A stretch of DNA of 64,000 bases from Dehalococcoidia bacterium (GCA_963663235.2 CAXXNO010000008.1:96001-160000), one strand, 5' to 3'; shown: positions 47,301 to 64,000, counted from the first letter of the stretch. The notes: generated by a model not told the origin, from the letters alone. Made by a program: numbers and translations.

Positions 47301-48200
47301 TCACACCGTCACCCGGCAGACGGGACAGCGCTCCCGGTCTGGGTCGCTCTCGTCCGCCCGCAAACGGTCGTCTTCGGTCTGGTATTGGGGCGTGCTGTGG
47401 CGCGGGATGCGGTCATCACTGCCGGTCATGAAGTCGCGCTTCCATCCATCATCGTCGGACCATCGGAAGGGCAACATTTTGACGGTACCCGGGGTCGTGA
47501 GTGAGGTGAACGCTTCCAGTGCCTGCTCCAGGATCGCTCGCTGCAGCTCCGGTTCATGCGGCTTCCCTGTCGTGTGCCCCAATGGGAAGTCCAAGAACGC
47601 CGCGCGCGGCGGCTTCACGGCCTGGGTGATGTCCAGGGCGCTGCTCATCGAGAGAGTCGGCACTCCGGCCGCTTCGAGCTCCCTGGCGATCAGTCCCACG
47701 GACTGATGACAGACCGGTCAGACCGGGACGAGGAGTGCGGCGTCAACCTGCTCTTCCAGGAGCCGCTCTCGCAGCTTGGGAGCCAGCTCCTCCCTGACCC
47801 GGCGCGATGAGTAGATTCCGCCCATGCACGTGAACGCGTGCTCCGCCAGTTCCCCGATGACCCCCTCACGCACCAGACGCCGCAGCGTGTCGATCGGGAA
47901 CACTACGTTTGGGTCGTCGCGCGCGTCGGTCTGGTCGTAGGCGAAATGCGCCGTTCGCAGGTCCGCAGTCTTCACGTCGGTGGGGACGGCGCGGATCGAT
48001 GTGTCATCCCGATAGTGGAAGGCGACCTGCCCGGTCACGTAGATGCCACCAGTGGCGACGAGCCCCAAGCGGCACTCGGAAAGCGGCTTCCGCAGCGGCT
48101 GCCAGGACGGCGGCTCCTCGTTGACCACCCACTGGTAGGCGGCGTAACCGAGGTCCGCGTAGCTGTCGCGAATCCGGCGCATGTACTCGATAGGTGGCAT
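47301..48200 (-). CDS. GrdB/PrdB-family selenoprotein; UGA at 47718-47720 read as Sec
   Basis: ORFs 47718..48224 and 47301..47699 are in the same frame, joined by V-U-P-V-C-H-Q-S-V-G-L-I-A-R-E-L-E..G.PT...PPRA.FLDFPLG..TG.P. ATG 48200 follows GAGGAG. Confidence 0.88.
47689..47707 (-). promoter_or_regulatory. Bacterial SECIS-like hairpin
   Basis: Perfect 8-bp stem AUCAGUCC-GUG-GGACUGAU; the G-led loop starts 18 nt after the UGA. Confidence 0.75.
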
Positions 48201-48316
48201 CCGCAGCTCCTCAGGCCGCCGCATTCTCTCCGCCTGCCCTCATACTACCGCGTCAACGCCACCGCCCGGCAGAGCAGCAGCGACCACGAGCGGACGAACG
48301 CCGGACCCGTCCGCGT

Positions 48317-49687
48317 TTACTGCTCCCAACCGGGAATCCAGTGCGTCCCGGCGAGCGGAACACGTGCCATGGCGGCAGCCTCGACTGTCAAGGCCACAAG
48401 GTCGTCCGGCTCCAGGTTGTGCACGTCCGACTTTCCGCATGCTCGAGCGAGCGCTGTCAGCTCCATAGTCAGCGCCCGCAGGTAGTTCGCGACGCGCCGG
48501 GCGCCCCACGCTGGGTCGAGGCGCTTCTCAAGCTCCGGATCCTGCGTGGTGATGCCCATGGGGCACAGCCCCGTCTGCATGTGGTGACAGTACCCCGGCT
48601 CCGTTCCCAGCGCGTGATAGTCGGCGGTGGCGTCGATCTCGCGTCCGTCCTGGACGTAGGTGCGGCTGTTGCACCCCAGCGCGATCAGCGCCGCCGTGCC
48701 GATTGACACCGCGTCGGCGCCGAGGGCCAGCGCCTTGGCGACGTCGGCGCCGGACCGGATCCCGCCCGAGACGATGAGTTGTACCTCACCTTCTTTGCCG
48801 ATCTCGCGCAGGGCCTCCGCTGCCTGCCGCACGGCGGGCAGCGTCGGGATGCCGGCGTGCTCGATGAACACGTCCTGTGTCGCCGCGGTGCCGCCTTGGA
48901 GCCCGTCCACCACCACGACGTCTGCGCCGGCCGCCACGGCGAGCTTCACGTCATTCACCACCCGCGTGGCCCCCAGCTTCACGTAGACCGGCTTCTCCCA
49001 ATTGGTCGCCTCGCGTAGCTCTTCGATCTTGATCCGCAGGTCGTCTGGTCCAGTCCAGTCGGGATGGCGGGAGGCCGATCGTTGGTCGATTCCGGGGGGC
49101 AGCGTGCGCATGGCGGCGACCCGCTCACTCACCTTCTGGCCCAGGAGGATGCCGCCACCGCCCGGCTTCGCGCCCTGCCCGATCACGACTTCGATGGCAT
49201 CCGCGCTCTTCAGGTCCGCCGGATTGAAGCCGTATCGGGACGGGAGGCACTGGTAGACCAGCAGCTTGGATGCACGACGCTCTTCCGGCGTCATCCCCCC
49301 GTCGCCGGTGGTGGTTGATGTGCCGACCTCCGTGGCGGCCCGGCCGAGAGCCTCCTTGGCGGTCGCCGAGAGCGAACCGAAGCTCATCCCTGTAATGGTG
49401 ATCGGGATCGCCAGTTCCAACGGCTTGGAGGCGAAGCGGGCCCCCAGCACCGTCTTGGTGTCGCAGCGCTCCCGATACCCCTCCAGGGGGTATCGGGACG
49501 CCGATGCCGTCAGGAACACGAGATCGTCGAAGGTGGGCATGACGCGCTTGCTCCCACCCCCCCGGATCTCGTAGTGGCCCATCTCGGCCATCCGGTCGAT
49601 CTGGGCGATGACCTCAGGCGAGAAGGTGTGGCTCCGCAGTCGGGCGTCGTAGGGCAGAGAAGCGCTGTCGTCGTTGCGGCCGGCCAT
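48317..49687 (-). CDS. mgsC: N-methylglutamate synthase FMN subunit (GlxD, glutamate-synthase FMN domain)
   Basis: SRYPLEGYRE.C, GMSFGSLS, TTTGDGGM, GQGAKPGGGG, SRHPDWTGPDDL motifs; TGATG overlap with mgsB. Confidence 0.9.
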   Translation of the reverse strand: MAGRNDDSASLPYDARLRSHTFSPEVIAQIDRMAEMGHYEIRGGGSKRVMPTFDDLVFLTASASRYPLEGYRERCDTKTVLGARFASKPLELAIPITITGMSFGSLSATAKEALGRAATEVGTSTTTGDGGMTPEERRASKLLVYQCLPSRYGFNPADLKSADAIEVVIGQGAKPGGGGILLGQKVSERVAAMRTLPPGIDQRSASRHPDWTGPDDLRIKIEELREATNWEKPVYVKLGATRVVNDVKLAVAAGADVVVVDGLQGGTAATQDVFIEHAGIPTLPAVRQAAEALREIGKEGEVQLIVSGGIRSGADVAKALALGADAVSIGTAALIALGCNSRTYVQDGREIDATADYHALGTEPGYCHHMQTGLCPMGITTQDPELEKRLDPAWGARRVANYLRALTMELTALARACGKSDVHNLEPDDLVALTVEAAAMARVPLAGTHWIPGWEQ

Positions 49688-50364
49688 CAGTAGCCGTGCC
49701 CTTTCAGCGTGTCGAAGTGATAGAACTCCCGTGCAGAGCCGATGCGGGTCACGTTCTCCGGATCGATGTGATCGAAGCCCGCTTGCTGGATCAGCTGCCG
49801 CACCAAACAGACATCCTCCGCGCGGAGCTCCTCCACCCGCGCGTCCGCCCCCAGCGACCGGACCGTGCCGCCCACGTAGATCACGGCTTCGTAGAGTGAG
49901 TCTCCCAACGCTTCCCCGGCGTCCCCGCCGATTAAGAGGACTCCTGCCTGCGCCATGAACCCGCTCATGTGCCCCGCATCGCCGGCGACGGCGATGGTAC
50001 CTCCTTTGAGGGAAATTCCAGCCCGCGATGAGGCGTCGCCCTCGATGACGATGATCCCGCCGTGGCTCGACGCGCCCGCGCACTCCGAGGCATTCCCGCG
50101 GACTCGCACACTGCCTCTCATCAGGTTTTCGCCCACCGACCAGCCGACGAACCCATTCACCGTGATCTCCGGTCCATCGCACAGACCGCCGATGAAGTAG
50201 CCGGCGTTCCCGTCGATGCTGATCGTGATGCGGTTCGCTAGCCCGGCGGCCAGGTTGTGGCGTCCGTTCGGCTCGGTGACGGTGACGTCGGTGCCGTCGG
50301 AAAGGGCTGCCAGCCGCTGGTTGACTTCGCGGGTGCTGAGCTCCGCGCAGCTCAGCGAGACCAT
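49687..50364 (-). CDS. mgsB: N-methylglutamate synthase GXGXG subunit (GlxC)
   Basis: Gly-rich beta-helix repeats; GENLM.G, RAGISLKG, FMAQ.G, LGDSLYE motifs. Confidence 0.9.
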   Translation of the reverse strand: MVSLSCAELSTREVNQRLAALSDGTDVTVTEPNGRHNLAAGLANRITISIDGNAGYFIGGLCDGPEITVNGFVGWSVGENLMRGSVRVRGNASECAGASSHGGIIVIEGDASSRAGISLKGGTIAVAGDAGHMSGFMAQAGVLLIGGDAGEALGDSLYEAVIYVGGTVRSLGADARVEELRAEDVCLVRQLIQQAGFDHIDPENVTRIGSAREFYHFDTLKGHGY

Positions 50365-51248
50365 ACGTGGATCTCCTCGGGCATCGGTTCAAAGACCGTA
50401 GCCTCCCGGATGCCGGGCAGCCCGGCGAGCGCGCGGTACTCGGAGGCCATGGCCACGTAGTCGTCGCACTCCGCGATCACCGCTGGCTTGCAGGCGAACG
50501 CGTCGCGCACCACGGCGAATTCATTGCGCGTGGCCACCAACAAGGTAAAAAACCCGTCGAGGGTGGTGAGCACCTTATCGAGCGCTTGCGCCAGGGTGTC
50601 TCCGTCTGCCATCTGCTGGGCCATATAGCGGGCGGCGACCTCCGAGTCGTTGTCCGTATCGAATCGGATCCCCTCGTCCATCAAGCGCCGCCGGACCGTG
50701 GCGTAGTTCGAGAAGCTGCCGTTGTGGACCAGGCAGAAGTCCGCCGCTGCCGCGAAGGGGTGCGAGTGGTCCGTAGTGACAGCCGACTCCGTGGCCATCC
50801 GCGTGTGCCCCAGGCCCTGGTACCCCGAGCGATCCGCCGTCCCGTAACGCTGACAGACGTCGCTTGGCGATCCAACGTCCTTGTAGACTTCTAGGGCGTG
50901 TCCGAACGCAAAGACACGGACCTCTGGAGCTTCCGCCTTGAGCGCATCGAGCAGTTGCTCGGTCCCGTGCTCCGCGATCAGGACGGCATCATCGGCGATG
51001 CGGCGAATCTGAGTCCCGCTGTCCGGCCGTCCGTTCAAGCGGTGGGCCAGGCCCTCCCAGTCGTAGCCGGGGCCGGGAGCGCGCAGGGAGTAGCGATAGC
51101 TGCCTTCCGGCAGGCCGTCCTCGTACAGCGCGATGCCCGCGGAGTCGGGGCCCCTCTCGCTCATGGCGAGCAGCATGGGCGTTAGCCAGGCGCCCAGCCG
51201 CGGATACAGAGCCGGTTTCTTGAGGTGCAGCCCGACAATCCCGCACAT
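50352..51248 (-). CDS. mgsA: N-methylglutamate synthase class II amidotransferase subunit (GlxB)
   Basis: MCGIVG N-terminus; RGPDSAG, GHTRMATES, HNGS.SN, RD.F.CKP motifs. Confidence 0.9.
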   Translation of the reverse strand: MCGIVGLHLKKPALYPRLGAWLTPMLLAMSERGPDSAGIALYEDGLPEGSYRYSLRAPGPGYDWEGLAHRLNGRPDSGTQIRRIADDAVLIAEHGTEQLLDALKAEAPEVRVFAFGHALEVYKDVGSPSDVCQRYGTADRSGYQGLGHTRMATESAVTTDHSHPFAAAADFCLVHNGSFSNYATVRRRLMDEGIRFDTDNDSEVAARYMAQQMADGDTLAQALDKVLTTLDGFFTLLVATRNEFAVVRDAFACKPAVIAECDDYVAMASEYRALAGLPGIREATVFEPMPEEIHVWSR

Positions 51249-51426: not shown

Positions 51427-52785
51427 GTGGGCGAAGGTCACGCGGACTTGAAGAGACGGGCGCAGCAGGACGGCATCGAGTTCTTCTTCGCGATGTTCGT
51501 TGACATGCACGGCAAGCCTTGCGCCAAATTGGTGCCGGCGGCCTCGTTCGACGCCCTGATGTCGGATGGCGTCGGCTTCGCCGGCTTCGCGGCGGGCCCC
51601 CTGGGCCAGAGCCCGGCCGATCCCGATTTGATCGCCATCCCGGATCCCGCCTCCTACACGCCGGTCCCCTGGCAGCACGGGCTTGCCGTGCTCCACTGCG
51701 ACCTCCACGTCAACGGCGAGAAATGGCCGTACTCCCCCAGGGTCATCCTCAAGCGCCAGCTCGCGCGTCTCGCCGAACGGCGGATGGTCTTTAACTGTGG
51801 CGCGGAGATCGAATACTTCCTGGTGCGCCGCACCGACGATGGAGGGATCGCCCCTGCCGATCCGCTCGATACCGCGGCGCAGCCCTGCTACGACGCCAAG
51901 GGGCTCACCCGAATGTACGACCATCTCACCGTGGTCTCGCGTTATCTCAATCGCCTCGGCTGGGGCAACTACGCCAATGACCACGAGGACGCCAACGGCC
52001 AGTTCGAGCAGAACTTCGCCTACGCCGACGCCCTGACCACCGCCGATCGGGTCATCTTCTTCCGCTACATGGTGCACACCCTCGCGAATCAGGCCGGGCT
52101 TGTGGCCACCTTCATGCCGAAGCCGTTTGCCCACCTGACCGGGAGCGGCATGCATATCCACTCCAGCCTCTGGAACACGGAAACGGGCGAGCCGCTCTTC
52201 CTCGATCCGGCGGACGCACGGGGCTTGGGATTGTCAAAGCTGGCCTACCAGTTCATCGCCGGTCTGCTAGAGCACGCCCCGTCGATGATGGCCGTCATCG
52301 GCCCGACCGTGAACTCCTACAAGCGGATTGGCGTGGCCCCCCCGGTTTCTGGATCAACCTGGGCACCCGCCTATATCACCTACGGCGGCAACAATCGCAC
52401 CCAGATGCTGCGGGTCCCCGAATCGGGACGTGTCGAGAATCGCGCTGTAGACGGCTCGGCCAATCCGTACCTGGCCTTCACCGTCATGGCGGCTGCCGGC
52501 CTCGATGGCATCGACCGCGGCCTCGACCCCGGGGATCCAAACCGCGACAATCTCTACGCCCTGCACCCCGACGAAGTGAAGACGCGCGGCATCAAGGTCG
52601 TGCCGGAAACCCTCACCCACGCAGTAGATGAGCTGGTGCAGGACTCCGTGCTCCGGGAGGCGCTGGGCAAAGTCCGCACGGGCGACTACATCGATTACTT
52701 CGCCCGTACCAAGCGGGACGAGTTCGCGGAGTTCCACCGGGCCGTGGGCGCGTGGGAACTTAATCGCTACCTGACGCTCTTCTAG
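51427..52785 (+). CDS. gmaS: Gamma-glutamylmethylamide synthetase (type III glutamine synthetase, GlnT-like)
   Basis: AKLVPA, GFAGFA, QPCYD, DHEDANGQFE, TFMPKPF, SG.TWAP, GGNNRT motifs; context between mgs and mgd genes; GTG after AGGAGG. Confidence 0.88.
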   Translation: MGEGHADLKRRAQQDGIEFFFAMFVDMHGKPCAKLVPAASFDALMSDGVGFAGFAAGPLGQSPADPDLIAIPDPASYTPVPWQHGLAVLHCDLHVNGEKWPYSPRVILKRQLARLAERRMVFNCGAEIEYFLVRRTDDGGIAPADPLDTAAQPCYDAKGLTRMYDHLTVVSRYLNRLGWGNYANDHEDANGQFEQNFAYADALTTADRVIFFRYMVHTLANQAGLVATFMPKPFAHLTGSGMHIHSSLWNTETGEPLFLDPADARGLGLSKLAYQFIAGLLEHAPSMMAVIGPTVNSYKRIGVAPPVSGSTWAPAYITYGGNNRTQMLRVPESGRVENRAVDGSANPYLAFTVMAAAGLDGIDRGLDPGDPNRDNLYALHPDEVKTRGIKVVPETLTHAVDELVQDSVLREALGKVRTGDYIDYFARTKRDEFAEFHRAVGAWELNRYLTLF

Positions 52786-52882
52786 GTGGACCCGCGTCTG
52801 CCACCGCTCTATGCTGGGCCGCTGCAGCCACGGCGATCCTTTGTCTGCGACGTACGCCCGTGGTCTGGCCACCTGGTGCACG

Positions 52883-54181
52883 ATGTGGCGACCGCTGAAC
52901 GGACTGCTTGGCAACGGCAGAGGATCGGGGCCGCGGGCGCGCTACTCAGCGTTCGGGTTGCTCCGCCGCGGCCTCTCCGGGGCTGATTGGCCCCCCGCCT
53001 GGTCGACGCACGATCTAGCGCCCTCCTACGACGTGGTGGTGATCGGCGGTGGTGTGCACGGCCTCGCCACGGCCTACTACCTGGCCACCAACCACGGCCT
53101 CCGCAACGTCGCCGTCATTGAGAAGCGCTACATCGGCAGCGGCGCCTCGGGCCGCAATACGGCGATTATCCGCTCCAACTACCTAACTCCGGAGGGCGTC
53201 CGCTTCTACCACCGGTCGCTCAAGCTGTATGAGAGGCTCGCGGCCGACCTCAACTTCAACGTCATGTTTGAGCAGCGCGGTCATCTCACCCTCGCCCACA
53301 ACGATTCCTCGGTCCGCACCATGCGTTGGCGGGCGGAGGTCAACAAGCTTGAAGGGGTAGACTCCGAGGTCATCGGCCCCACCGAGGTCAAGGAGCTGGC
53401 GCCGTTCCTCGATGTCTCGGAGCAGACCCGCTATCCGATCCTCGGAGCGCTGTATCACCCGCCCGGCGGCATCGTCCGCCACGACGCAGTCGTCTGGGGC
53501 TATGCCCGCGGCGCCAGCGCCCGCGGCGTGCATATCCATCAGGACACCGAGGTCCTCGATATCAACGTGATCGGCGGCAAGGTCAGGGGTGTGGTCACCA
53601 ACCGCGGCGAGATCGCGACGCCTGTGGTCGTCAACTGCACGGCCGGCTGGTCCTCAGTGATCGCCGGCATGGCGGGGGTCGAGCTCCCGATCGAGACCTT
53701 CCCCCTCCAGGCGGCTGTCACGGAGCCTGTGAAGTTCTTCCTCAATCCGGTGATCGTGTCGGGGACGCTCCATGTATACGTGAGCCAGACCGCCCGCGGC
53801 GAGCTGGTCTTCGGCGCCAGCGTGGATCCGTTCACGTCCTATTCCACCCAAGGCTCGCTCGAATTCACCGAGGAGTTGGCCGGCCACGTCTTGCAGCTGA
53901 TGCCATCGCTTGCCCGGCTGCGCCTGCTGCGGCAGTGGGCCGGCCTCTGCGACATGACGCCGGACTTCTCACCGATCATCGGCGCCACGCCCGTCGCGGG
54001 ATTCTACATCGACGTGGGCTGGGGTACCTATGGCTTCAAGGCAGGGCCAGTGGCCGGAGAGGCCATGGCTGAGTTCATCGCTACCGGCACGCCGCCGGAG
54101 ATCATCGCCACGTTCGATCTCGCTCGGTTCGACGAAGGCCGGCTCGTGGGCGAGAAGGGCGCGGCCGCGGTTGGACACTAG
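52883..54181 (+). CDS. mgdA: N-methylglutamate dehydrogenase / sarcosine oxidase beta subunit
   Basis: GGGVHGLATAY, GRNT.IIRSNY, RHDAV.WGYA, DMTPD.SPI, KGAAAVGH motifs; start uncertain. Confidence 0.87.
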   Translation: MWRPLNGLLGNGRGSGPRARYSAFGLLRRGLSGADWPPAWSTHDLAPSYDVVVIGGGVHGLATAYYLATNHGLRNVAVIEKRYIGSGASGRNTAIIRSNYLTPEGVRFYHRSLKLYERLAADLNFNVMFEQRGHLTLAHNDSSVRTMRWRAEVNKLEGVDSEVIGPTEVKELAPFLDVSEQTRYPILGALYHPPGGIVRHDAVVWGYARGASARGVHIHQDTEVLDINVIGGKVRGVVTNRGEIATPVVVNCTAGWSSVIAGMAGVELPIETFPLQAAVTEPVKFFLNPVIVSGTLHVYVSQTARGELVFGASVDPFTSYSTQGSLEFTEELAGHVLQLMPSLARLRLLRQWAGLCDMTPDFSPIIGATPVAGFYIDVGWGTYGFKAGPVAGEAMAEFIATGTPPEIIATFDLARFDEGRLVGEKGAAAVGH

Positions 54182-54199
54182 GCGCAAGGAGCGGTCGCC

Positions 54200-54505
54200 G
54201 TGATCCTGATCCCCTGCATCCATTGCGGCCCGCGTAACGCCTCCGAGTTCGCGTACCTGGGCGAACTGGGCCGCCAGCCGGACCCCAACACCACAACGCC
54301 ACCGGAATGGCGACGTTACCTCTACACCAAAGCCAACACCGCTGGCTGGACGGTTGAACGGTGGGTCCACCGTGCCGGCTGCGGGCGCTTCTTTACGGTG
54401 GAGCGGAACACGCTCGACAACAAGATCCGCACGGCTCGACCCCCCGACGCGCAGATCCGTCTTATCCAGCAGGCCGGACGAGCAGACCCAAAGGCCGACG
54501 CATGA
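54200..54505 (+). CDS. mgdB: NMG dehydrogenase / sarcosine oxidase delta subunit
   Basis: IPC.HCG.R...EF and W.H..GC..FF...RNT zinc motif. Confidence 0.88.
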   Translation: MILIPCIHCGPRNASEFAYLGELGRQPDPNTTTPPEWRRYLYTKANTAGWTVERWVHRAGCGRFFTVERNTLDNKIRTARPPDAQIRLIQQAGRADPKADA

Positions 54506-57375
54506 CAACCATGCTCCGGGCAGCCGGCAGCGCTGCGCGTCTCGGGCCGCAGCCTGGCGAGGTCATCGACCGAGCGCATCGCTTCACGTTCAGATGGAAT
54601 GGCGCGGAAACCGCCGCCTACGCCGGTGACACCATCATCTCGGCGCTGGCGGCGGCCGGAGAACGCGTCTTCTCCCGGAGCTTCAAGTATCACCGGCCGC
54701 GCGGACTCCTCACCGCCAGCTTCATCGACCCCGGCTGTCTGGTGCAAGTAGGGAAGGAGCCCAACGTCCGCGGCGCGCACCGCCGCGTGGAAGCCGGCAT
54801 GGCGGTCCGGGCACAAAACGTCTGGCCGTCGCTCCGCTATGACGTGATGGCGCTCAACCAGGCAATGACTCGGATGCTGCCGCCCGGATTCTACTACAAG
54901 ACGTTCATGGCGCCGCGCGCTTTGTGGCCCGCCTATCAGATGGTGCTGCGACGCTTCGCGCCTGGCGGAGTCGTCACCAACACCAGAACAGACGCCTACT
55001 TCGATAAGCGCTACGCCCACCCAGACGTCCTGATCGCTGGCGGCGGACCGGCTGGCATGGCGGCGGCGGTGGCCGCCGCCGACGAGGGCGCGAAAGTGTT
55101 GTTGGTCGAGGAGGAGTACGAGCTGGGTGGCCACCTCCGTTGGGGCACTGAGGCAGACCTGGCGACCCTGCGCGAGTTGCGCGACGCGGTGGCGGCAAAC
55201 GAGCGCGTGGAGATCATGACCAACTCGACCGTCGCCGCCCGCTACGACGGTAACTGGGTGGCGGTGGCCCAGCGCAACCTTCGCCACGTTGATGAGCGCC
55301 TCATTAAGGCGCGCGCGAAGGTGCTGGTGGTGGCGCCCGGGTTAATTGAGCGGCCCTATGTCTTCGCCGGGAATGACAAGCCTGGTGTCATGCTCTCGAC
55401 CGCGGTGCGGCGCTTAATCAACCTCTACGCTGTGAAGCCGGGCGACCGCGCCGTCGTCTTCACCGCGAACGAGGCCGGCGATGCCGCCATCGCCGATCTG
55501 GAGCGCGCCGGGGTCCAGATCGCGCGGGTTGTCGACGCCCGTCGGGGCGGCAACCTCGTTCGGGCGCGCGGACGCGGCGGCGTACAAGAGGTGCACTTGG
55601 CGGACGGTGCCCGGGTGGAGGCGGACCTCCTCGTTACGGCGGTTGGCTGGACCGCCCCGACAACGCTGCTCACCATGGCGGGCGGCCACCCCGTGTACAA
55701 CCATCGGGCGGCTCGCTTCTTCCCTTCGGAACCGCCCGAAGACGTGCTGGCGACCGGCGGCATCGTCGGCGATGGCACGCTCGACCAGCTGCTCGCCCAT
55801 GCCCGTGCGGTGGGCGCGGAGGCCGCCCGCCGCGCGAGTATCCGCGCTCGCAACCTGCGCGCGGGCAACCCGACCGCGCCGAGCGTTGACCAGCGCTCTC
55901 CTGACTCATCATCCTCGTCCATTCCCGATCTCCCGATTGATGACAGCCCCGCCCTCTTCCGCAGCGCCACGCACGGCATCGTTGACTACTCGGAAGACGT
56001 CTCCTCCAAGGACATCTTCTCCGCGGTCCGTGAAGGCTATGACTCCATCGAGTTGGCGAAGCGTTACACGACCGCCACCATGGGACCGGCGCAGGGCAAG
56101 CTGGAGATGGTCAACGCCATCGCCGTTCACGCGGAGGCGGCCGGCCGGTCCATCGCGGAGACCGGCAGCACCACCTGGCGTCCGCCTTACGCGCCCGTCA
56201 CCCTCGGGGCCCTGGCTGGACGCGCGTTCGAGCCGGTGAGCGTCTCGCCCATGCAGCCGTGGCATGAGCGCCACGATGCCAGAGCGCTGATCGCCGGGCA
56301 CTGGATCCGCCCCGACCACTACGGCGACGCCGCGGCCGAAGTGCGCAACGTGCGCCGGAACGTCGGCATCATCGATGTGACGCCGCTCGGGAAGTTCGAC
56401 CTGCGCGGCCCAGACGTCCCGCGCCTGCTGAACCACCTGTACGTGAACAAGTGGTCCAAGCTCGCGATCGGATCGGTCCGATACGGCGTCATGTGCGCGC
56501 CAGACGGCGTCGTCCTGGATGACGGCGTGACCGGCCGGCTCGGCGAGGATCGCTACGTGATGACCACGACCTCGTCCGGTCCGGAGACCGTCTGGCGCTG
56601 GATCGAGGAGGCATTGCAGACCGAGCACCCCGAGTGGCGGGTGCATGTCATCCCAGTGACCGCCGCCTACGCCAGCATGAATGTGGCGGGCCCCAACTCC
56701 CGGGAGCTGATGTGCCGCGTCGTTGCGGACGTCGACCTCGACCCAGAGGCTTTCCCCTACATGCGCGTACGGAACGGTCGCATCGCTGGGGTGGATGGCT
56801 GCTTCATGTGGCGCATTGGCTTCACCGGAGAGCTGAGCTACGAGCTGCACGTCCCCGCCGCCTACGGTCTGCACGTCTGGGAGACGCTCCTGGATGTCGG
56901 CCGCGACCTCCATATCGGTCCTTTCGGCATCGAAGCGCAGCGAATCATGCGGCTGGAGAAGGGGCACTTCATCGTGGGGCAAGATACGGACGCCCTGACG
57001 GGCGCCTTCGCCGCTGGCCTTGCCCCGCTCGTGAAACTCGACAAGGAGGATTTCATCGGCAAGCCGGAGCTGATCTGGCAAGAGGGGCACGAAGACATCC
57101 TCCATCTCGTTGCTCTCCAGCCGGTGGACAGCTCCGTCGTGCCGCCGGAGGGGAGCCAGATCATCGAGGGCCGGAGACGCATCGTGGGGCGCATTACCTC
57201 CAGCCGCATGTCCCCGACGCTCGGTCGCTCGATCTGTCTGGGCTTCGTCGCGCCGCACCTCAAGGAGCCCGGCGCCATCGTCACCGTCCGCCTGCCGGAC
57301 GGCGGGCATGTCCCCGCGACCGTCATGGAGCATCACGCCCATTTCGATCCGGAAGGGGTGCGCCTCCGTGGTTGA
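54502..57375 (+). CDS. mgdC: NMG dehydrogenase / sarcosine oxidase alpha subunit
   Basis: GDTI.SAL, SRSFKYHRPRG, GFYYKTF, GGGPAG, KRYTT..MG..QGK motifs; GcvT-like C-terminus (IGFTGELSYE, RLEKG). Confidence 0.9.
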   Translation: MTTMLRAAGSAARLGPQPGEVIDRAHRFTFRWNGAETAAYAGDTIISALAAAGERVFSRSFKYHRPRGLLTASFIDPGCLVQVGKEPNVRGAHRRVEAGMAVRAQNVWPSLRYDVMALNQAMTRMLPPGFYYKTFMAPRALWPAYQMVLRRFAPGGVVTNTRTDAYFDKRYAHPDVLIAGGGPAGMAAAVAAADEGAKVLLVEEEYELGGHLRWGTEADLATLRELRDAVAANERVEIMTNSTVAARYDGNWVAVAQRNLRHVDERLIKARAKVLVVAPGLIERPYVFAGNDKPGVMLSTAVRRLINLYAVKPGDRAVVFTANEAGDAAIADLERAGVQIARVVDARRGGNLVRARGRGGVQEVHLADGARVEADLLVTAVGWTAPTTLLTMAGGHPVYNHRAARFFPSEPPEDVLATGGIVGDGTLDQLLAHARAVGAEAARRASIRARNLRAGNPTAPSVDQRSPDSSSSSIPDLPIDDSPALFRSATHGIVDYSEDVSSKDIFSAVREGYDSIELAKRYTTATMGPAQGKLEMVNAIAVHAEAAGRSIAETGSTTWRPPYAPVTLGALAGRAFEPVSVSPMQPWHERHDARALIAGHWIRPDHYGDAAAEVRNVRRNVGIIDVTPLGKFDLRGPDVPRLLNHLYVNKWSKLAIGSVRYGVMCAPDGVVLDDGVTGRLGEDRYVMTTTSSGPETVWRWIEEALQTEHPEWRVHVIPVTAAYASMNVAGPNSRELMCRVVADVDLDPEAFPYMRVRNGRIAGVDGCFMWRIGFTGELSYELHVPAAYGLHVWETLLDVGRDLHIGPFGIEAQRIMRLEKGHFIVGQDTDALTGAFAAGLAPLVKLDKEDFIGKPELIWQEGHEDILHLVALQPVDSSVVPPEGSQIIEGRRRIVGRITSSRMSPTLGRSICLGFVAPHLKEPGAIVTVRLPDGGHVPATVMEHHAHFDPEGVRLRG

Positions 57376-57994
57376 CCGTGCCCCGCTTGCTCGCAGCCCC
57401 ATCGATCCCGCTCCCCCGGTCGCGGTCGTCGATGGTTGGGAGGTCAGCGATCGGCAAAGCTCCGCTGCCCTACGAATCGTCGACTGCACGCCCCTGGCGA
57501 AGGTCCTCGTGCGTGCCGACGGCGACGGAGAAGCGGCGCGGACGCTCGATGTCGGTTTCGGCAACGCGCGGCGGGACGCCGCCGGCACTCTCGTAGTTGG
57601 CGATGGGCCGGATGAGTGGATTTTACTGGCGCCTCCGGGGAGCGCGCCGACACTGGCACAGCGGCTGGACAATCTGGCCTCAGGCGAGTTCGTCAGCGTC
57701 CTCGATGTCACCCACGTCCGCGCTCTGATCCGGCTGACCGGCGAGGATGCGGCCCACCTCTTGGCCAAGGTCTGCGCCATCGACCTCGACGAGCAGGTAA
57801 CGCCCAACGGCGCCGCCTTTCGTAGCTCGGTGGCCGAGGTGGTGACCGACGTCGTTCGCGATGATCAGGCCAGTGCGCGTTCCTACCTGCTTCACTGCGA
57901 GCGCTCGTTCGGCCAGTACCTGTTCGATGCCTTGCTGGATGCGGGCAACGAGTTCGGCATGGACATCGACGGCTTCCGGCCGCCCGGGATCTGA
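57368..57994 (+). CDS. mgdD: NMG dehydrogenase / sarcosine oxidase gamma subunit
   Basis: ARSP, GPDEW, L.G..A..LLAK.C.IDL, RSFG.YL...L.DA..EF motifs. Confidence 0.85.
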   Translation: MVDRAPLARSPIDPAPPVAVVDGWEVSDRQSSAALRIVDCTPLAKVLVRADGDGEAARTLDVGFGNARRDAAGTLVVGDGPDEWILLAPPGSAPTLAQRLDNLASGEFVSVLDVTHVRALIRLTGEDAAHLLAKVCAIDLDEQVTPNGAAFRSSVAEVVTDVVRDDQASARSYLLHCERSFGQYLFDALLDAGNEFGMDIDGFRPPGI

Positions 57995-58057
57995 GCAGCC
58001 CGTGCCGCACCCTCGCTCCACCCCGAGTCACCAACGCCCACGCCCTGCGTACCGGCA

Positions 58058-58738
58058 ATGACTGACCTCTCCGCGCTCCTGGCCACGCTTCAACACGGCG
58101 ATAGCTTCTTCCCCAGCGGCGCCATCGCCTTCTCGCACGGCCTGGAAACCCTCCGCGCCGATGGCGAAGTCACTACCGCCGACGAGGTCGAGCGATTCAT
58201 CCTCGGGCAACTGTGGGGCCGCTGGGCCTCGTGCGACCGTGCCATCCTCACCGCCGCCTACCACGCGGGCGCCGATCTCGACCGGGTGGAGCACGCCGAT
58301 CGACTCCTGGACGCCATCGCGCTTCCCCGCGAGCTGCGCGAGGGCTCGCGCCGGACGGGGGCCGCGCTGCTCGGAGTCCACGTGGATCTGGGCACCCACA
58401 ACGCCCGGGCATACCGGGAACGGACGGACACGGACGAGGCGCTCGGTCACCTCTCCGCGGTCCAGGGTCTTGTCTGGCGCGGCATCGGCCTGTCCTTGGA
58501 TGAAGCCGGCGCGGCGGCCGTTCACGCGCTTTGCATCGCGCTGCTGGGCGCCGCCTTGCGCCTGAGCGTGATCGGCCACGTCTCGGCTCAGCGCCTCCTC
58601 GGTGGCCTGCGGCCGGCTCTCGTGCAACTGCTGGCGCAGGAGCCGCCCTCACTGGACGAGATCCACACCTTTGCTCCGCTGCCGGAGATTGCTGTGATGC
58701 GACACGAGACCCAGACGAGCCGGCTGTTTTCCAACTGA
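58058..58738 (+). CDS. ureF: Urease accessory protein UreF
   Basis: DS.FP.GA.AFS.GLE, RE.SRR.G, HE....RLF motifs. Confidence 0.9.
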
Positions 58739-58763
58739 CGAGTTGGGTGAAAGGGATAAGCCG

Positions 58764-59465
58764 ATGCTACTGATACCGACGGAGATCGAGCGCCTGATGA
58801 TCTTCAGTGCGGCCGAGCTCGCGCGGAAGCGTCGGGCCCGGGGACTGAAACTCAATCATCCCGAGGCTGTTGCTCTGATCACTGATGAGATCCTCGAAGG
58901 CGCTCGCGATGGGCGATCGGTCGCCAATCTCATCGGCTTCGGCGCGACTCTACTGACCACCGACGACGTCCTCCCCGGCGTCGCCGAGATGGTGTCAGTC
59001 GTCCAGGTGGAAGGCACCTTCCTCGATGGCACCAAGCTGGTCACGGTCCATGACCCGATCCGGCCGGGGAAGGAGGAGATCCCTCCGGCGCGAGCGGTCG
59101 TTCCGGGCGAGATCATCACTGCCGACGGCGACATCGAGTTGAATGCGGGCCGTAGTAGGGCCACGGTGACGGTCACGAACACCGGCGACCGCCCGGTCCA
59201 AGTTGGTAGCCATTACCATTTCTTCGAAGTCAACCGCCATCTCGACTTCGATCGCGCGGCCGCGTTCGGCCTCCGGCTTGATATCCCGGCGGGAACCGCG
59301 TTGCGCTTCGAGCCCGGCGAGAGCAAAGCAGTGACCCTCGTCGAGTTCGGGGGCAACGGCGAACTCTCCGGCCTCAACAGCCTCACCGTCGGCTCGCGCC
59401 ACTCCACCGACACCAAGGAGCGGGCCATCCATCGCGCCCGCGAGCGCGGCTTCAAGGGAGCTTGA
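58764..59465 (+). CDS. ureAB: Fused urease gamma/beta subunit
   Basis: [24 protein letters not shown] (gamma) followed by [34 protein letters not shown] (beta). Confidence 0.92.
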
Positions 59466-59468
59466 GCC

Positions 59469-61181
59469 ATGGCAACGATCACACGCCGCCGTTACGCCAC
59501 CCTGTACGGCCCCACCACGGGCGATGCGATCCGCCTGGCCGACACCTCACTTCTCGCCGAGATCGAGCACGACTTCGCCGTATACGGCGACGAGTGCTTG
59601 CATGGCGGTGGCAAGACCCTTCGTGATGGCATGGGGTTGGTGTCCGGCCTCACCAGCGAGGCCGGATCGCTCGACATGCTGCTCAGCAACGCCGTCGTGA
59701 TTGATCCCGTGATCGGCGTCGTCAAGGCCGATATCGGGATCAAGGAGGGCCGGATCTCGGGTATCGGAAAGGCGGGAAACCCGGCTGTCATGGACGGAGT
59801 CGACCCATCCTTGCTTTGCGGGGCGGCGACCACCGTCCGCGACGCCGAGGGATTGATCGCAACGCCCGGCGGCATCGACTGTCACGTCCACTTCGACAGC
59901 GCCCAGCTCTGCGAACACGCCATCAGCAGCGGCGTGACGACGATGCTGGGCGGATCGCTAGGCCCGATTACCGTGGGGATCGACTCGGGCGGCGCCTGGA
60001 ATGTGGCCCGGATGCTCCAGGCCGCTGAGCACTGGCCGATCAACTTCGGCTTCCTGGGCCGGGGTAACTCCTCCGACCCGCGCTCCCTGATCGATCAGAT
60101 CGAAGGCGGCTGCATGGGGCTCAAGATTCACGAGGACTGGGGCGCGATGCCGGCCGTCATCGACACCTGCCTCAGCGTCGCTGACGAGATGGATTTCCAG
60201 GTCCAGCTCCACACCGACACGCTGAACGAGAGCGGCTTTCTGGAGGATACGCTCGCAGCCATCAACGGCCGCACCATCCACATGTACCACGCGGAGGGCG
60301 CCGGTGGTGGCCACGCACCGGACATCATTCGCGTCTCCGGCGAGCCGAACTGCCTCCCCTCCTCCACCAACCCGACGAATCCTTACACGGTCAACACGTT
60401 CGATGAGCACCTCGACATGATCATGGTCTGCCACCACCTCAATCCGGCGGTGCCGGAGGATGTGGCCTTCGCCGAGAGTCGCATCCGCGCGGAGACCATC
60501 GCCGCGGAAGATGTGCTGCATGACCTGGGGGCCATCTCCATGCTCGGCTCGGATAGCCAAGGCATGGGCCGCATCAGCGAGGTGATCTGTCGCACCTGGC
60601 AACTGGCTAGCAAGATGCGAGATCAGCGCGGCCGCTTGCCCGGAGAGCGCCTCGCCCGTGGCGACAACGAGCGCATCAAGCGCTACATCGCCAAGTACAC
60701 CATTAATCCCGCACGAGCCTTCGGCATCGATGCCCACGTGGGTTCGCTGGAGTCGGGCAAGCTCGCCGACGTGGTGCTCTGGCGGCCGGCCTTCTTCGGC
60801 ATAAAACCAGAGCTCGTCATCAAAGGCGGCTTTATCGTTTGGTCCGCCATGGGCGATAGCGCCGCCTCGCTGATGACCTGTGAGCCGCTGATGTTGCGCC
60901 CGCAATGGGGCGCCTTCGGGAGCGCGCCGCAGGCGCTGAGCCTGGCTTTCGTCTCCCAGGCTGCGATGGACCGTGACATCAAAGGCCGGCTCGACTTGCG
61001 CACGGAGGTTGTGCCGGCGAAGAACACGCGCCGGCTCACCAAGGGGAATATGCTGCATAACGATGTGTGTCCGGAGGTGCGCGTGAACCCTGAGACATTC
61101 GAGGTCCATGTCGACGGCGAACTGGCCACCTGCGAGCCGGCGCAGGAACTTCCCCTCGCCCGCCGCTACATGCTGCGATGA
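59469..61181 (+). CDS. ureC: Urease alpha subunit, divergent
   Basis: [62 protein letters not shown] motifs. Confidence 0.92.
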
Positions 61182-61834
61182 CGGCCTCAGCGGACGGTGA
61201 GCGCTCCGGTCCCAAGCGCATCGGCATCGGCGGGCCCGTGGGGTCGGGCAAGACGGCGCTGATCGAGGCACTGATTCCGCGCCTGCATTACCGCGGCTAC
61301 GAGGTCGCCATCGTGACCAACGACCTGGTGACGCAAGAGGACGCCGAACGCCTCCAGCGCGCCGGATCCATTGCCCCCGAGCGCGTGGTCGGTGTGGAGA
61401 CAGGCGCCTGCCCCCACACCGCCATCCGTGAGGACCCGACGCTGAACATCGCCGCGGCTGATCGCCTCGCGAGGCGCTTTCGCTTGCTGGACCTGATCTT
61501 GATCGAGAGCGGCGGCGACAACTTGGCTTCCACCTTCTCCCGCGAACTCGTGGATTACTGGCTCTTCGTGATCGATGTAGCCGCCGGCGACGATGTCCCG
61601 CGGAAGCGCGGCCCCGGCCTGATCCAGTGCGATCTCCTCGTGGTCAACAAGATCGATCTCGCGCCCTACGTTCACGCCAATCTCGATGTCATCCGCAGGG
61701 ACAGCGTCATGCTTCGCGGCGACCGGCCGATCGCCTTCACCAACTGTCAGACCGGTGACGGGATCGAGTCGGTCATGCAGCTCCTCACGGGCGACGTCCT
61801 TCAGCGAGCATCCGCGAGAGCCGGTCCCTTGTGA
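61178..61834 (+). CDS. ureG: Urease accessory GTPase UreG
   Basis: [30 protein letters not shown] motifs. Confidence 0.93.
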
Positions 61835-62709
61835 CGGCATCCGTGCTCGGCGGCGCGCCGCCGCTGCCCGCTTCCGGCGCCAGCGGCGGCCGGGCCGAGT
61901 TCCGCTTCGAGCGCGCGCCCGGTGGTCGCACCTATTTGGCGGGGCAGTACGTCGAGTACCCGTACCACGTTACCCGTCCCCTCTATCTCGAGCCCTCGTG
62001 GCCGGAGCTGCCCATGCTGTGTGTGCAGTCGGCATCGGGCGGTCTCTTCCAGGGCGACCGGCTGCAACTGACGGCTGCGCTGGGGCAGGAAGCCGCGGTT
62101 CAGGTGACCACGCAGTCCGCGACCAAGGCCCACAGGATGCAGCGCGATCACGCAGTCCAGTCGGTTGATCTCGCTCTCGCCCCTGGAAGCTATCTCGAAT
62201 ACCTCGCCGATCCCCTCATCCTGTTTCCCGGCGCCCGCGTCCTCGCGTCCGTGGCGGTACGCCTCAGCGAAGATTCCTCCGCGATCGTGCGGGAGTCGTT
62301 CCTCCACCATGACCCGGCCGGTTCGCGCGAGGCGGCTTTTAGTCTCCTTGTCAGCGAGGTTGCCATCTCCCGTCCAGACGGGACACTGCTCGCCCTGGAC
62401 CGGCAGCGGATCTGTCCGGCCGGCGATACGCGGGAAGTCCGCGATCTCTTGCGCCGCTTTCCTGCGCAGGGGGCCGTCTATGCGCTCGGCGCTTCGTCTC
62501 TGCCTCAACTCACGGAACAGCTGCGCCACGCGCTCGATGCATCCCCCGCCTGCTACGGCGGGGCCTCCGCCCTCCCCAATGGCTGCGGGGCGTACCTGCG
62601 CGTACTCGCCCCGGATGGTGAATCACTGCGGGCCGCTCTCGACCTCGCCTGCGCCGCTGCCCGTTGGTCGATCACGCGCCGTCCCGTCTCCCATCACTGG
62701 CGGAAGTAA
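61831..62709 (+). CDS. ureD: Urease accessory protein UreD/UreH
   Basis: SGGL.QGD.L, TTQSATK, LEYL.DP.I.F motifs. Confidence 0.88.
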
Positions 62710-62858
62710 GGGGCGCCCTGTTGCCCCGCAGCGGGCTGTCCTCGCCGACCGTCTTCTATTAACTGCCCGGCAGGCGACCGCTTGTCTCATTCGCCGCCTG
62801 TAGGAAGGGCACAACGATCTGGTCTCCAATCGCCGTTGGCAAGAGCGCCGGGCTCATC

Positions 62859-64000
62859 TTGGCCGGCCGGCGCAAGGTCTACTACGGCTGGTGGCTGCTC
62901 GCCGCCGTCGTGCCGGCGCAGGCTGTGCTCACCGGTGTCTCCTTCTGGTCGTTCGGCCTCTACATCAAGCCGCTGGAAGATCAGTTCGGCTGGTCGCGTG
63001 CGGAGGTATCGCTCGGCTTCTCCGTCGCGCTGCTGATCAGCGGCCTCACCGCGCCGCTCGTCGGCAAGGCGATCGACGTCTATGGCCCCCGGCGGGTAAT
63101 CGTCATCGGCGCGGTCCTGTCGGTCGCCAGCTACCTCCTGCTCGCCACCACCAGTTCGCTGTGGCAGTGGTACGCGTACCAGTCGATCAACGCCGTCTTC
63201 CGGCAAATGATCTTCTTCATCCCCTTCACGGCCCTGATCGCGATCTGGTTCGATCGGCGGCGCGGTACCGCGATCGGCATTCTCGCCACCGGCTTCGCGC
63301 TCGGCGGCATGGTCATGGTGCCCGTGATGCGGGTCGTTATCGACTCTGTCGAATGGGATGGCTCTTTCCTCGTCTCTGCGGCGCTGATTGGCGTGCTCTT
63401 TCTGCCGCTGGGGCTCCTGCTGGTCCGGAACCGCCCCGCCGACGTGGGCGCGGAGGTGGATGGGGAGCCGCGGTTGGGCGCCGCGCCGAAAGCGCCGGTC
63501 GCTCCGGTCGGGATGACCCTCAGTCAGGCGCTGCGGACGCCGCTGTTCTGGGCGCTCGCCCTGGCATTCGCGTTCTTCTTCTACGGCCTCTTCGGATGGA
63601 CCGTGCATGCCATCCCCTACTACGAGTCCGTCGGCCTCTCGCCGGGCTGGGCCGTGGCTTTCTTCTCCATCGCCTCCGGCGCCGCCGTGCTCACTCGCCT
63701 GACGTTCGGAATCCTTGCGGACCGGATCCGCAACATCGAGAGGGCCGCTGCCATACTCGCCGTTTTTTTGGTGGTCGCCATGCTGGTCCTGTACGTGACG
63801 GCCGGGTCGACGCTTGGGTTGGCGCTCTTCGTGCCCCTCTTCGTGATCGGCACCGGCGGCGGACCCATGTTCGAGCCGCTCTTGCTCACCCGGTCCTTCG
63901 GTATCGCTCACTTCGGCACGATCCTGGGCGCCGTGGCGGCGGTGGACACGGTGGGCCTCGTGATCAGCCCCACCGTGGCCGGCGCAATCTTCGACGCCAC
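62859..64000 (+). CDS. MFS transporter (OFA/MCT-like), 3' end beyond window
   Basis: Open frame RKVYYGWWLL...FGLYIKPLEDQFGWSR, GKAIDVYGPR, WFDRRRG.A.G, G.LADR, FG.AHFG.I.G; absent from the ORF track because no stop falls inside the window. Confidence 0.85.
   Translation, partial: MAGRRKVYYGWWLLAAVVPAQAVLTGVSFWSFGLYIKPLEDQFGWSRAEVSLGFSVALLISGLTAPLVGKAIDVYGPRRVIVIGAVLSVASYLLLATTSSLWQWYAYQSINAVFRQMIFFIPFTALIAIWFDRRRGTAIGILATGFALGGMVMVPVMRVVIDSVEWDGSFLVSAALIGVLFLPLGLLLVRNRPADVGAEVDGEPRLGAAPKAPVAPVGMTLSQALRTPLFWALALAFAFFFYGLFGWTVHAIPYYESVGLSPGWAVAFFSIASGAAVLTRLTFGILADRIRNIERAAAILAVFLVVAMLVLYVTAGSTLGLALFVPLFVIGTGGGPMFEPLLLTRSFGIAHFGTILGAVAAVDTVGLVISPTVAGAIFDA

Follow-up and report, generated by a model that had tools for sequence, protein, structure and literature searches.

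Gene content of the locus

In a 64,000-nt stretch of DNA from a Dehalococcoidia bacterium (CAXXNO010000008.1:96001-160000), hereafter the window, whose full length is the basis of all window coordinates, the genes of a methylamine pathway are directly followed by those of a divergent urease. The present analysis concerns this urease, the lineage to which it belongs and the substrate that it is likely to hydrolyze. Gene calls, made from domain and NCBIfam profile matches, agree with the original prediction: gmaS, mgdA, mgdB, mgdC, mgdD, ureF, a fused ureAB, ureC, ureG, ureD and a gene for a transporter of the major facilitator superfamily (MFS) succeed each other on the plus strand, with a gap of 63 nt between mgdD and ureF, and mgsA, mgsB and mgsC lie divergently upstream. 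The G+C content of the region is 64-70%.

48317..49687, minus strand: mgsC, N-methylglutamate synthase subunit C (glutamate-synthase flavin mononucleotide domain; PF01645, 319 bits; ATG at 49687)
49687..50364, minus strand: mgsB, N-methylglutamate synthase subunit B (GXGXG / FwdC-like; TIGR03122-like, 71.8 bits, under cut-off)
50352..51248, minus strand: mgsA, N-methylglutamate synthase subunit A (class-II amidotransferase; PF13522/PF13537)
51427..52785, plus strand: gmaS, gamma-glutamylmethylamide synthetase (TIGR03105, 603.7 bits, cut-off 469.6)
52811..54181, plus strand: mgdA, N-methylglutamate dehydrogenase beta-like subunit (start 52811 or 52883; PF01266; TIGR01373)
54200..54505, plus strand: mgdB, delta-like subunit (PF04267 SoxD, 88.7 bits)
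54502..57375, plus strand: mgdC, alpha-like subunit (TIGR01372, 829.7 bits, under the 1164 cut-off of true SoxA)
57368..57994, plus strand: mgdD, gamma-like subunit (PF04268 SoxG; GTG at 57368)
57995..58057, plus strand: spacer of 63 nt between the mgdD stop and ureF
58058..58738, plus strand: ureF, urease accessory protein (PF01730, 97.8 bits)
58764..59465, plus strand: ureAB, fused gamma/beta urease subunit (open reading frame from 58743, ATG 58764; NF009671, 356.3 bits, cut-off 243)
59469..61181, plus strand: ureC, urease alpha subunit of the short-loop/DSQG clade (TIGR01792, 835.1 bits, cut-off 680)
61178..61834, plus strand: ureG, nickel-insertion GTPase (TIGR00101, 256.3 bits, cut-off 204.2)
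61831..62709, plus strand: ureD, urease accessory protein (PF01774, 136.1 bits)
62859..64000, plus strand, cut by the window end: MFS transporter, oxalate/formate-antiporter or lactate-transporter-like (PF07690)

The closest solved structures to GmaS are glutamate--methylamine ligases (9qur, 408 bits; 7cql, 403 bits), glutamine synthetases reaching at most 227 bits. The ATG of mgsA at 51248 follows GGAGA, and its product has a Met-Cys start with CGIVG next. Among the dehydrogenase genes, the ATG of mgdC overlaps the mgdB stop and the start of mgdD overlaps the end of mgdC. MgdA scores 514.4 bits against the soxB family TIGR01373, slightly under the cut-off of 529.45; scores below the cut-offs of true sarcosine oxidases are as expected for Mgd subunits. 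Judged by sequence, the N-methylglutamate (NMG) pathway gene set is complete, with GmaS, a three-subunit synthase and a four-subunit dehydrogenase encoded by adjacent genes and showing the expected domains. All eight genes of the gmaS-mgsABC-mgdABCD cluster described for Methylobacterium and other methylotrophs in the available text of PMC5017803 are thus represented, the difference being that the cluster of the window carries an appended urease operon. In that text the urease and NMG gene sets are treated separately, and full-text literature searches, with subscription journals outside their coverage, returned no paper describing a urease operon appended to an NMG cluster.

A scan of the mgdD-ureF spacer gave neither a terminator-like nor a promoter-like match. 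Contigs from DNA runs of three different studies span the junction, which is therefore not an assembly artefact. The accessory genes ureF, ureG and ureD are all present and translationally coupled, ureG overlapping the ureC stop, and ureD the ureG stop, by 4 nt each.

UreC retains the urease machinery around a rebuilt pocket

Urease is among the best-studied of enzymes and is regarded as nearly absolute for urea. The window UreC aligns over its full length with that of Klebsiella aerogenes (PDB 1ejw_C, 705 bits) and also lies above the cut-off of NF009686 (888.9 bits vs 354). The alignment bears out the prediction that all dinickel ligands and the flap are kept: the HxH pair, GLKIHEDWG with the carbamylated Lys, two further His, the Asp of DSQ and the flap MVCHH are in place. 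Catalytic His, Asp and Arg, flap Cys-His and nickel ligands all align with 1ejw_C and are invariant across the clade described below. The three predicted deviations were also found. HVHFDSAQ occupies residues 139-146, canonical HFICPQ having become HFDSAQ; the loop at residues 161-177 (59949-59999) is 3 residues shorter than the GPAxGTxATTC loop of K. aerogenes; and in DSQGMGR, Gly365 (60561) replaces the Ala of DSQA. Of the residues that hold urea in canonical enzymes, the Gly of GAGGG is kept, the A167-equivalent is Val and the A363-equivalent is Gly. The loop beside Ni(2) is more hydrophobic in the clade (PITVGI) than in canonical ureases (PAxGTxATT).

For the urease of Sporosarcina pasteurii, Mazzei et al. 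2020 (PMC7433671, available text) report that the urea nitrogen bound to Ni(2) is held through the carbonyl oxygens of Ala170 and Ala366 and the distal one through Gly280 O and Ala366 O, and that the C-beta of Ala366 contacts the Ni(2)-bound water. The original prediction had both Ala lining the pocket of the distal NH2; by these contacts this is right for Ala366, whose carbonyl holds the distal nitrogen, but not for Ala170, whose carbonyl holds the Ni(2)-bound one. It is therefore the Ni(2) side that would be remodeled and, since the contacts are made by backbone atoms, those with urea could survive the Ala substitutions.

Such a pocket could nevertheless mean that the whole clade hydrolyzes N-alkylureas, the rebuilt Ni(2) side admitting N-methylurea and perhaps dimethylureas. 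The products would be methylamine and carbamate, or N-methylcarbamate and ammonia, and the methylamine would be consumed by the GmaS, MgsABC and MgdABCD of the same transcript. We hold this to be doubtful. In its favor, the Ala-to-Gly change at DSQA would remove the C-beta that touches the Ni(2)-bound ligand (PMC7433671, same text), and the loop with the other carbonyl acceptor is shortened and more hydrophobic; the pocket is rebuilt exactly where room would be needed. Moreover, N-methylurea was not degraded by canonical urease in the assay of PMC6651757, as reported in its available part, so that a modified enzyme would be needed for this compound.

The genome from which the window comes (2.75 Mb, 92% complete) contains no UreC other than the window copy. 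With the single query searched, no UreE match was found in it; some ureases function without UreE. Altogether, ureF-ureAB-ureC-ureG-ureD appear to encode a complete urease, presumably nickel-dependent, of a distinct and widespread lineage.

The short-loop/DSQG clade of UreC

On motif and tree evidence, the pocket is not peculiar to the window and marks a well-supported, widespread UreC clade, found in several phyla. With one genome taken per species, identity to the window UreC drops from 72-83% (28 loci) to 64% or less, and the motifs of these 28 clade loci were compared with those of 52 non-clade loci. The 3-residue deletion is present in all 26 clade loci that cover the loop (GGSLGPIT in 25, GGGLGPVT in L004, from the cyanobacterium Pseudanabaena) and DSQGMGR in 28/28. 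Ala stands at the DSQA position in 49 of the 52 non-clade loci, and the 3 Gly exceptions (L030, L031, L065) are also short-looped. In a search of 5.8 billion protein sequences, the best 120 matches listed were 81-100% identical, nearly all of them being 570 residues in length.

A maximum-likelihood tree of 83 UreC rows, from which partial sequences of less than 500 residues were left out, recovers the short-loop/DSQG clade with Shimodaira-Hasegawa-like approximate likelihood ratio (SH-aLRT) values of 95-99; the five sequences of the window's family cluster at 90. This support, together with 30 positions that are fixed in the clade and fixed otherwise in canonical UreC, upholds the anticipated distinct clade with a consistently rebuilt pocket. 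The resemblance to canonical nickel ureases (K. aerogenes UreABC 1ejw, S. pasteurii, jack bean) covers nickel ligands, carbamylated-Lys motif, His219/Asp221-equivalents, flap Cys-His, Arg and UreF/G/D, whereas the 30 fixed substitutions include the loop, the A167V- and A363G-equivalents (the latter at the Ala of DSQA), HFDSAQ and a rewritten block 465-480. The window's gamma and beta subunits are, in addition, fused, and ureE is lacking in its family. Only 4 positions distinguish this family from the rest of the clade, none of them an exclusive pocket change, so that the window enzyme most likely shares the function of the clade.

In a sample of 401 genomes of one order, UreC was found in 251 and the clade form (74-81% identity) in 32, with a further, canonical UreC match in 28 of these 32. 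Nine of 10 other carrier genomes also hold a canonical UreC (56-61% identity). It is interrupted in one of them. In the complete genome G004, to which locus L027 belongs, a TGA and a frame change break the canonical ureC (C1:5537619-5539294), the clade copy being intact. When the four genomes of the order sample that seemed to have one copy only, together with G007, were searched with the family model, the clade form remained the sole UreC in G112, G460 and G007; in G466 a second UreC runs off the end of a contig, and G164 contains a fragment of 91 residues.

Four loci (L030, L031, L146, L152) form a long-branch offshoot next to or inside the clade, with DSQG (DTQG in L031), the short loop, altered residues after the HxH pair and an altered flap (MACHLL, MDAHML). 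No ureG was detected in L030, L031 or L152, and in this offshoot the function may have changed once more. Many cyanobacteria, such as Leptolyngbya, Oculatella and Chroococcidiopsis, have UreC proteins of 568 aa that are 67-69% identical to that of L151, a metagenome contig discussed below, and rank alongside proteobacterial clade members. Duplicated ure genes in cyanobacteria are merely mentioned in the available text of PMC6737895, and the literature searches yielded no characterization of the short-loop/DSQG lineage.

Linkage of the clade urease to NMG genes

We surveyed 60 sampled relatives, including 36 genomes of the window's family. UreC of the family type (84-86% identical) occurs in 4 of the 36, the other sampled members of the family having no UreC at E <= 1e-50. 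NMG genes are attached to the urease in all four, and hence in all five carriers including the window, MgsC being 83-87% and MgsB 74-76% identical in the relatives. The five thus have the 14-gene methylamine-pathway and urease cassette in common, in different genomic neighborhoods. Three relatives (L089-L091) share the gene order of the window, with abutting mgdD and ureF matches; in G013 the whole NMG block is inverted and ureF comes after mgsC. We rejected this inversion as independent evidence of linkage, for inverting a block that abuts the ure genes keeps the adjacency by necessity. True GmaS orthologues (74-81%) occur in the four UreC relatives and in G015, whose NMG block is without urease. 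In this family the urease is found only attached to NMG genes: 5 of 6 genomes with NMG carry it, against 0/31 without. Synteny between genera stops at the block borders, and integrase or transposase remnants lie beside the block in relatives. Just past mgsC in the window, an open reading frame of 168 aa (47718-48224, minus strand) resembles the C-terminal part of protein B of glycine/sarcosine/betaine or D-proline reductase (PF07355, 53.9 bits; PrdB model, 101 bits, under cut-off); its position beside mgsC is not kept in relatives.

A second linkage was found on L151, a metagenome contig of 56% G+C, whose short-loop/DSQG UreC is 65% identical to that of the window and shows HVHHDSPQ, GGGLGPVT-VGICSGG with the same 3-residue deletion, and DSQGMGR. 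On one strand (L151:636-13042) the contig reads ureA-ureB-ureC-ureE-ureF-ureG-ureD-mgsA-mgsB-mgsC-(mgsC-like)-gmaS-mgdB-mgdC, with about 740 nt between ureD and mgsA and the gamma and beta parts of the urease in different frames; in the interval from gmaS to mgdB no gene for the beta subunit (mgdA) was seen. The NMG proteins share 31-51% identity with those of the window. The nearest relatives of L151 are few (86-88% identical), one being labeled a Bathyarchaeia metagenome-assembled genome, which may be a binning error. In a FastTree analysis of 40 chosen rows, L151 falls at the base and not with the window's family, so that the linkage of short-loop/DSQG urease and NMG genes arose at least twice.

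That the clade would co-occur with gmaS, mgs and mgd, as had been suggested, holds for the five family carriers and L151 and fails elsewhere: NMG genes stand beside the clade urease in none of 58 other genome loci and none of 27 metagenome loci, which also speaks against N-alkylurea hydrolysis throughout the clade. GmaS-like genes were tried as a genome-wide marker and discarded. All 10 carriers tested have a match (42-47%), but 47 of 61 relatives also do at E <= 1e-60, and without a control set such presence is uninformative. The tie between the clade urease and the methylamine genes is real but narrow.

One could also ask whether an ordinary urease came to lie beside the NMG genes by historical accident, through one ancestral insertion in a mobile island that was then co-inherited, each part answering to separate needs and regulation. 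The five family loci do stem from one lineage, in which the G013 inversion keeps the adjacency automatically, and G015, the mobile-element remnants and the wide ureD-mgsA interval of L151 would all fit. Against this stand the second, independent linkage in L151 with another gene order, the tight spacing of 63 nt without a terminator-like site, the abutting matches in three relatives and the restriction of the family urease to NMG-bearing genomes. We regard such an accident as quite improbable.

Neighboring genes of clade and canonical ureases

The neighborhoods of 63 distinct clade loci were searched by tblastn with reference proteins. These loci comprise the 28 species-level loci, 4 family relatives, the window and 31 loci of the order sample, minus one duplicate (L097 = L017); the comparison set consists of the 52 non-clade urease loci, with a mean length of 19.4 kb. 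Gene contents were as follows (TMAO, trimethylamine N-oxide; ABC, ATP-binding cassette).

AmiC, AmiR or AmiE: clade 36/63; non-clade AmiE 3/52, AmiC/AmiR 0/52
AmiE: clade 22/63; non-clade 3/52
At least two Urt-like ABC genes: clade 26/63; non-clade 23/52
Agmatinase-family (DmgH-like) pair: clade 3/63; non-clade 0/52
True SoxA and SoxB: clade 5/63; non-clade 0/52
NMG genes: clade 5/63; non-clade 0/52
TMAO permease: clade 1/63; non-clade 0/52
ureE (clade-derived query): clade 49/63; non-clade 0/52

The order ureE-F-AB-C-G-D is found in 49 of the 63 clade loci, and the rate of Urt-like ABC genes is equal in the two sets. Genes for methylated nitrogen compounds (the DmgH-like pair, Sox, NMG and TMAO permease) are enriched around the clade urease, as N-alkylurea hydrolysis would lead one to expect. 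A further point for it is a four-gene module headed by an N,N-dimethylformamidase-beta-like protein, present in 6 genome loci and 1 metagenome locus of the clade and in none of the 52 non-clade loci. The head protein (800-830 aa, PF20254 284-303 bits) is 78-81% identical across orders and is accompanied by a protein of 405-461 aa of no family, a Sel1-repeat protein and a 107-aa protein. The module lies ahead of the clade urease genes in L107 (552-5205), L029, L108, L110, L117, L124 and L130, sometimes with AmiC/AmiR in between.

Four loci (L017, L095, L096, L134), whose UreC is 77-79% identical to that of the window, have an agmatinase-family gene pair, MefH/DmgH-like alpha and beta, directly upstream of clade ureE-F-AB-C-G-D. 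In L017 the two proteins of the pair match subunits A and B of metformin hydrolase (PDB 8snf, 8ryi; 577 and 524 bits). The arrangement resembles that of the dimethylguanidine/metformin hydrolase operon of Aminobacter niigataensis (Hyphomicrobiales; Sinn et al. 2024, PMC11399263), which has a urease gene set downstream. According to the available text of that paper, the characterized dimethylguanidine hydrolase splits its substrate into dimethylamine and urea; the authors refer to the urease encoded downstream, which is left uncharacterized there. In G112, which carries a DmgH-like pair, the clade enzyme is the only UreC found and hence the sole candidate for removing the urea of that pair, a point against a specialization on alkylureas. 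We had considered that DmgH-linked genomes might all have the clade urease only; the second UreC of G466 and the fragment in G164 led us to reject this, and only G112 is clean.

The frequency of the AmiC/AmiR sensors and of AmiE brings up another possibility, namely that the clade enzyme is a nickel amidase for a different small amide such as formamide, acetamide or N-methylformamide. In these substrates a hydrogen or methyl would stand in for the NH2 bound to Ni(2), and the leaving group at the distal position would be ammonia or methylamine. Formamide and acetamide are reportedly named as urease substrates in the title of a 1980 paper by Dixon et al., and the more hydrophobic Ni(2)-side loop would suit such compounds. 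On the other hand, AmiE in the same operons already handles primary short-chain amides, the links with DmgH and with Urt-like importers favor urea, and none of the residues used in urea hydrolysis (Asp, flap His, Arg) is missing. An amidase is, in our opinion, very improbable. The amide-linked loci (AmiC/AmiR, Urt-like importers, AmiE) have the same UreC clade and the same pocket as the window, whose cassette differs in having neither ureE nor amide genes and in being fused to the methylamine pathway.

Two further neighborhoods were observed. In G007 (L012:5182-13188), ureE-F-AB-C-G-D are immediately preceded by the genes of a NitT/TauT-type ABC importer (permease, ATPase and binding protein), without an intervening hydrolase gene, and the clade enzyme is the sole UreC of the genome. 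In an Oxalobacteraceae genome (L010:14289-18115), the genes downstream of the clade urease operon encode a TMAO permease (842 bits, over the cut-off), a creatininase-family protein and a type-III glutamine-synthetase homologue resembling GmaS.

Transporter, urea supply and expression

The MFS protein had been proposed to import a substituted urea. This proposal found no support, as an MFS gene lies beside ureD in none of the four relatives, and the lack of conservation also weighs against N-alkylurea hydrolysis. The only other MFS protein near a clade urease (L026) is 26% identical to that of the window. The best NCBIfam scores of the window MFS are far under the cut-offs, and its gene extends about 127 nt beyond the window end. 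On the same contig past that point (L082:1231-3752), it is followed by two family-III CoA-transferase genes, formyl-CoA-transferase-like but far under cut-offs, and a XerC/D-like recombinase gene lies 7.5 kb downstream. Not being conserved, and being followed by CoA-transferase genes that suggest another unit, the MFS gene is probably outside the urease system.

A urea-producing enzyme in or near the block was looked for and none was found, either in the window at 25-48 kb or within 18 kb downstream. Of 24 public runs, 20 contain all or some of the stretch. One RNA run yielded short contigs with 0-1 differences in mgdC (55407-55592), ureAB (58778-58928, 58976-59126) and ureC (59709-59891), which may stem from DNA carry-over.

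The likely substrate of the clade urease

We consider that the urease of this lineage most likely still hydrolyzes urea physiologically, perhaps with a relaxed tolerance for small N-substituted ureas, and we give this reading a probability of about 0.5. The window UreC scores above the NCBIfam urease-alpha equivalog cut-off and its catalytic machinery is complete. The pocket is identical in clade members that lie behind a urea-producing hydrolase and in those behind Urt-like importers, which is equally an argument against a clade of alkylurea hydrolases; with the same pocket in all contexts, urea is the most economical common substrate. The clade enzyme is, furthermore, the sole UreC in the window's own genome, in G007, in G112 and in G460.

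Several observations weigh against urea as the substrate. The presence of a urease in an NMG operon has no obvious metabolic reason, since urea is not a product of the NMG pathway. Short-loop/DSQG ureases became linked to NMG genes on two independent occasions, in the window's family and in L151, and canonical ureases in none of the 52 loci, where they likewise never adjoin Sox, DmgH or AmiC/AmiR genes. The adjacency of Urt genes is a weak proof of urea, because in a tree of binding proteins the Urt-like ones beside clade ureases fall mostly in clades of their own, apart from those of canonical ureases. A canonical urease accompanies the clade enzyme in 37 of 42 tested carrier genomes, one canonical copy being broken, which suggests that the two ureases are not equivalent. 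As to the supply of urea, searches of the 92% complete genome of the window found neither UrtA (best match 26% identity, 32.6 bits) nor an AmiS/UreI channel, and no enzyme of the arginase family able to provide it.

The two NMG fusions, the usual paralogy with a canonical urease and the missing urea importer or source are also what N-alkylurea hydrolysis would predict. In its boldest form this would make the short-loop/DSQG ureases nickel amidohydrolases for small N-methylated ureas (N-methylurea, dimethylureas) that release methylamines, and not urea specialists, a claim that we judge unlikely. If it were true, methylated ureas and guanidines would enter methylotrophy and nitrogen scavenging by a hitherto unknown route, marked by the dimethylformamidase-like, dimethylguanidine hydrolase, sarcosine oxidase and TMAO permease neighbors and by the two NMG fusions. 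The literature searches, however, returned neither a natural source of N-methylurea nor a bacterial methylurea hydrolase.

With urea as the most likely physiological substrate, we propose that catalysis proceeds as in urease, with a dinickel center on the carbamylated Lys, a bridging hydroxide as nucleophile and the flap His as proton donor. The hallmarks of the lineage are the fused gamma/beta subunit, the Ni(2)-side loop shortened by 3 residues and the Ala-to-Gly change in DSQA. This urease would have been recruited into catabolic islands for small nitrogen compounds and, in the window's family, its genes would have been welded onto the NMG methylamine operon to give the single 14-gene cassette. 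The latter is probably read through from the gmaS promoter, although no contig of the one RNA run spans the mgdD-ureF junction, and would turn methylamine and urea into ammonium/glutamate and methylene-tetrahydrofolate. A parallel can be drawn, by gene arrangement, with the dimethylguanidine hydrolase setting, as both pair a urease with a pathway yielding methylated amines. The DmgH-linked loci, however, have a urea-making hydrolase in the operon; the window cassette has none, and its genome is without an arginase-family match.

Whatever its substrate, we are dealing with a whole urease lineage that has a consistently rebuilt pocket and is usually a second copy. If methylated ureas are taken, the nickel-urease family would gain a new reaction and methylotrophs a new supply of methylamine, which would also be relevant to how metformin-derived and other methylated guanidine or urea pollutants are degraded. 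If the enzyme takes urea only, the clade would show the extent to which the urea pocket can change while the enzyme keeps its function, and the cassette would be a compact nitrogen-scavenging unit.

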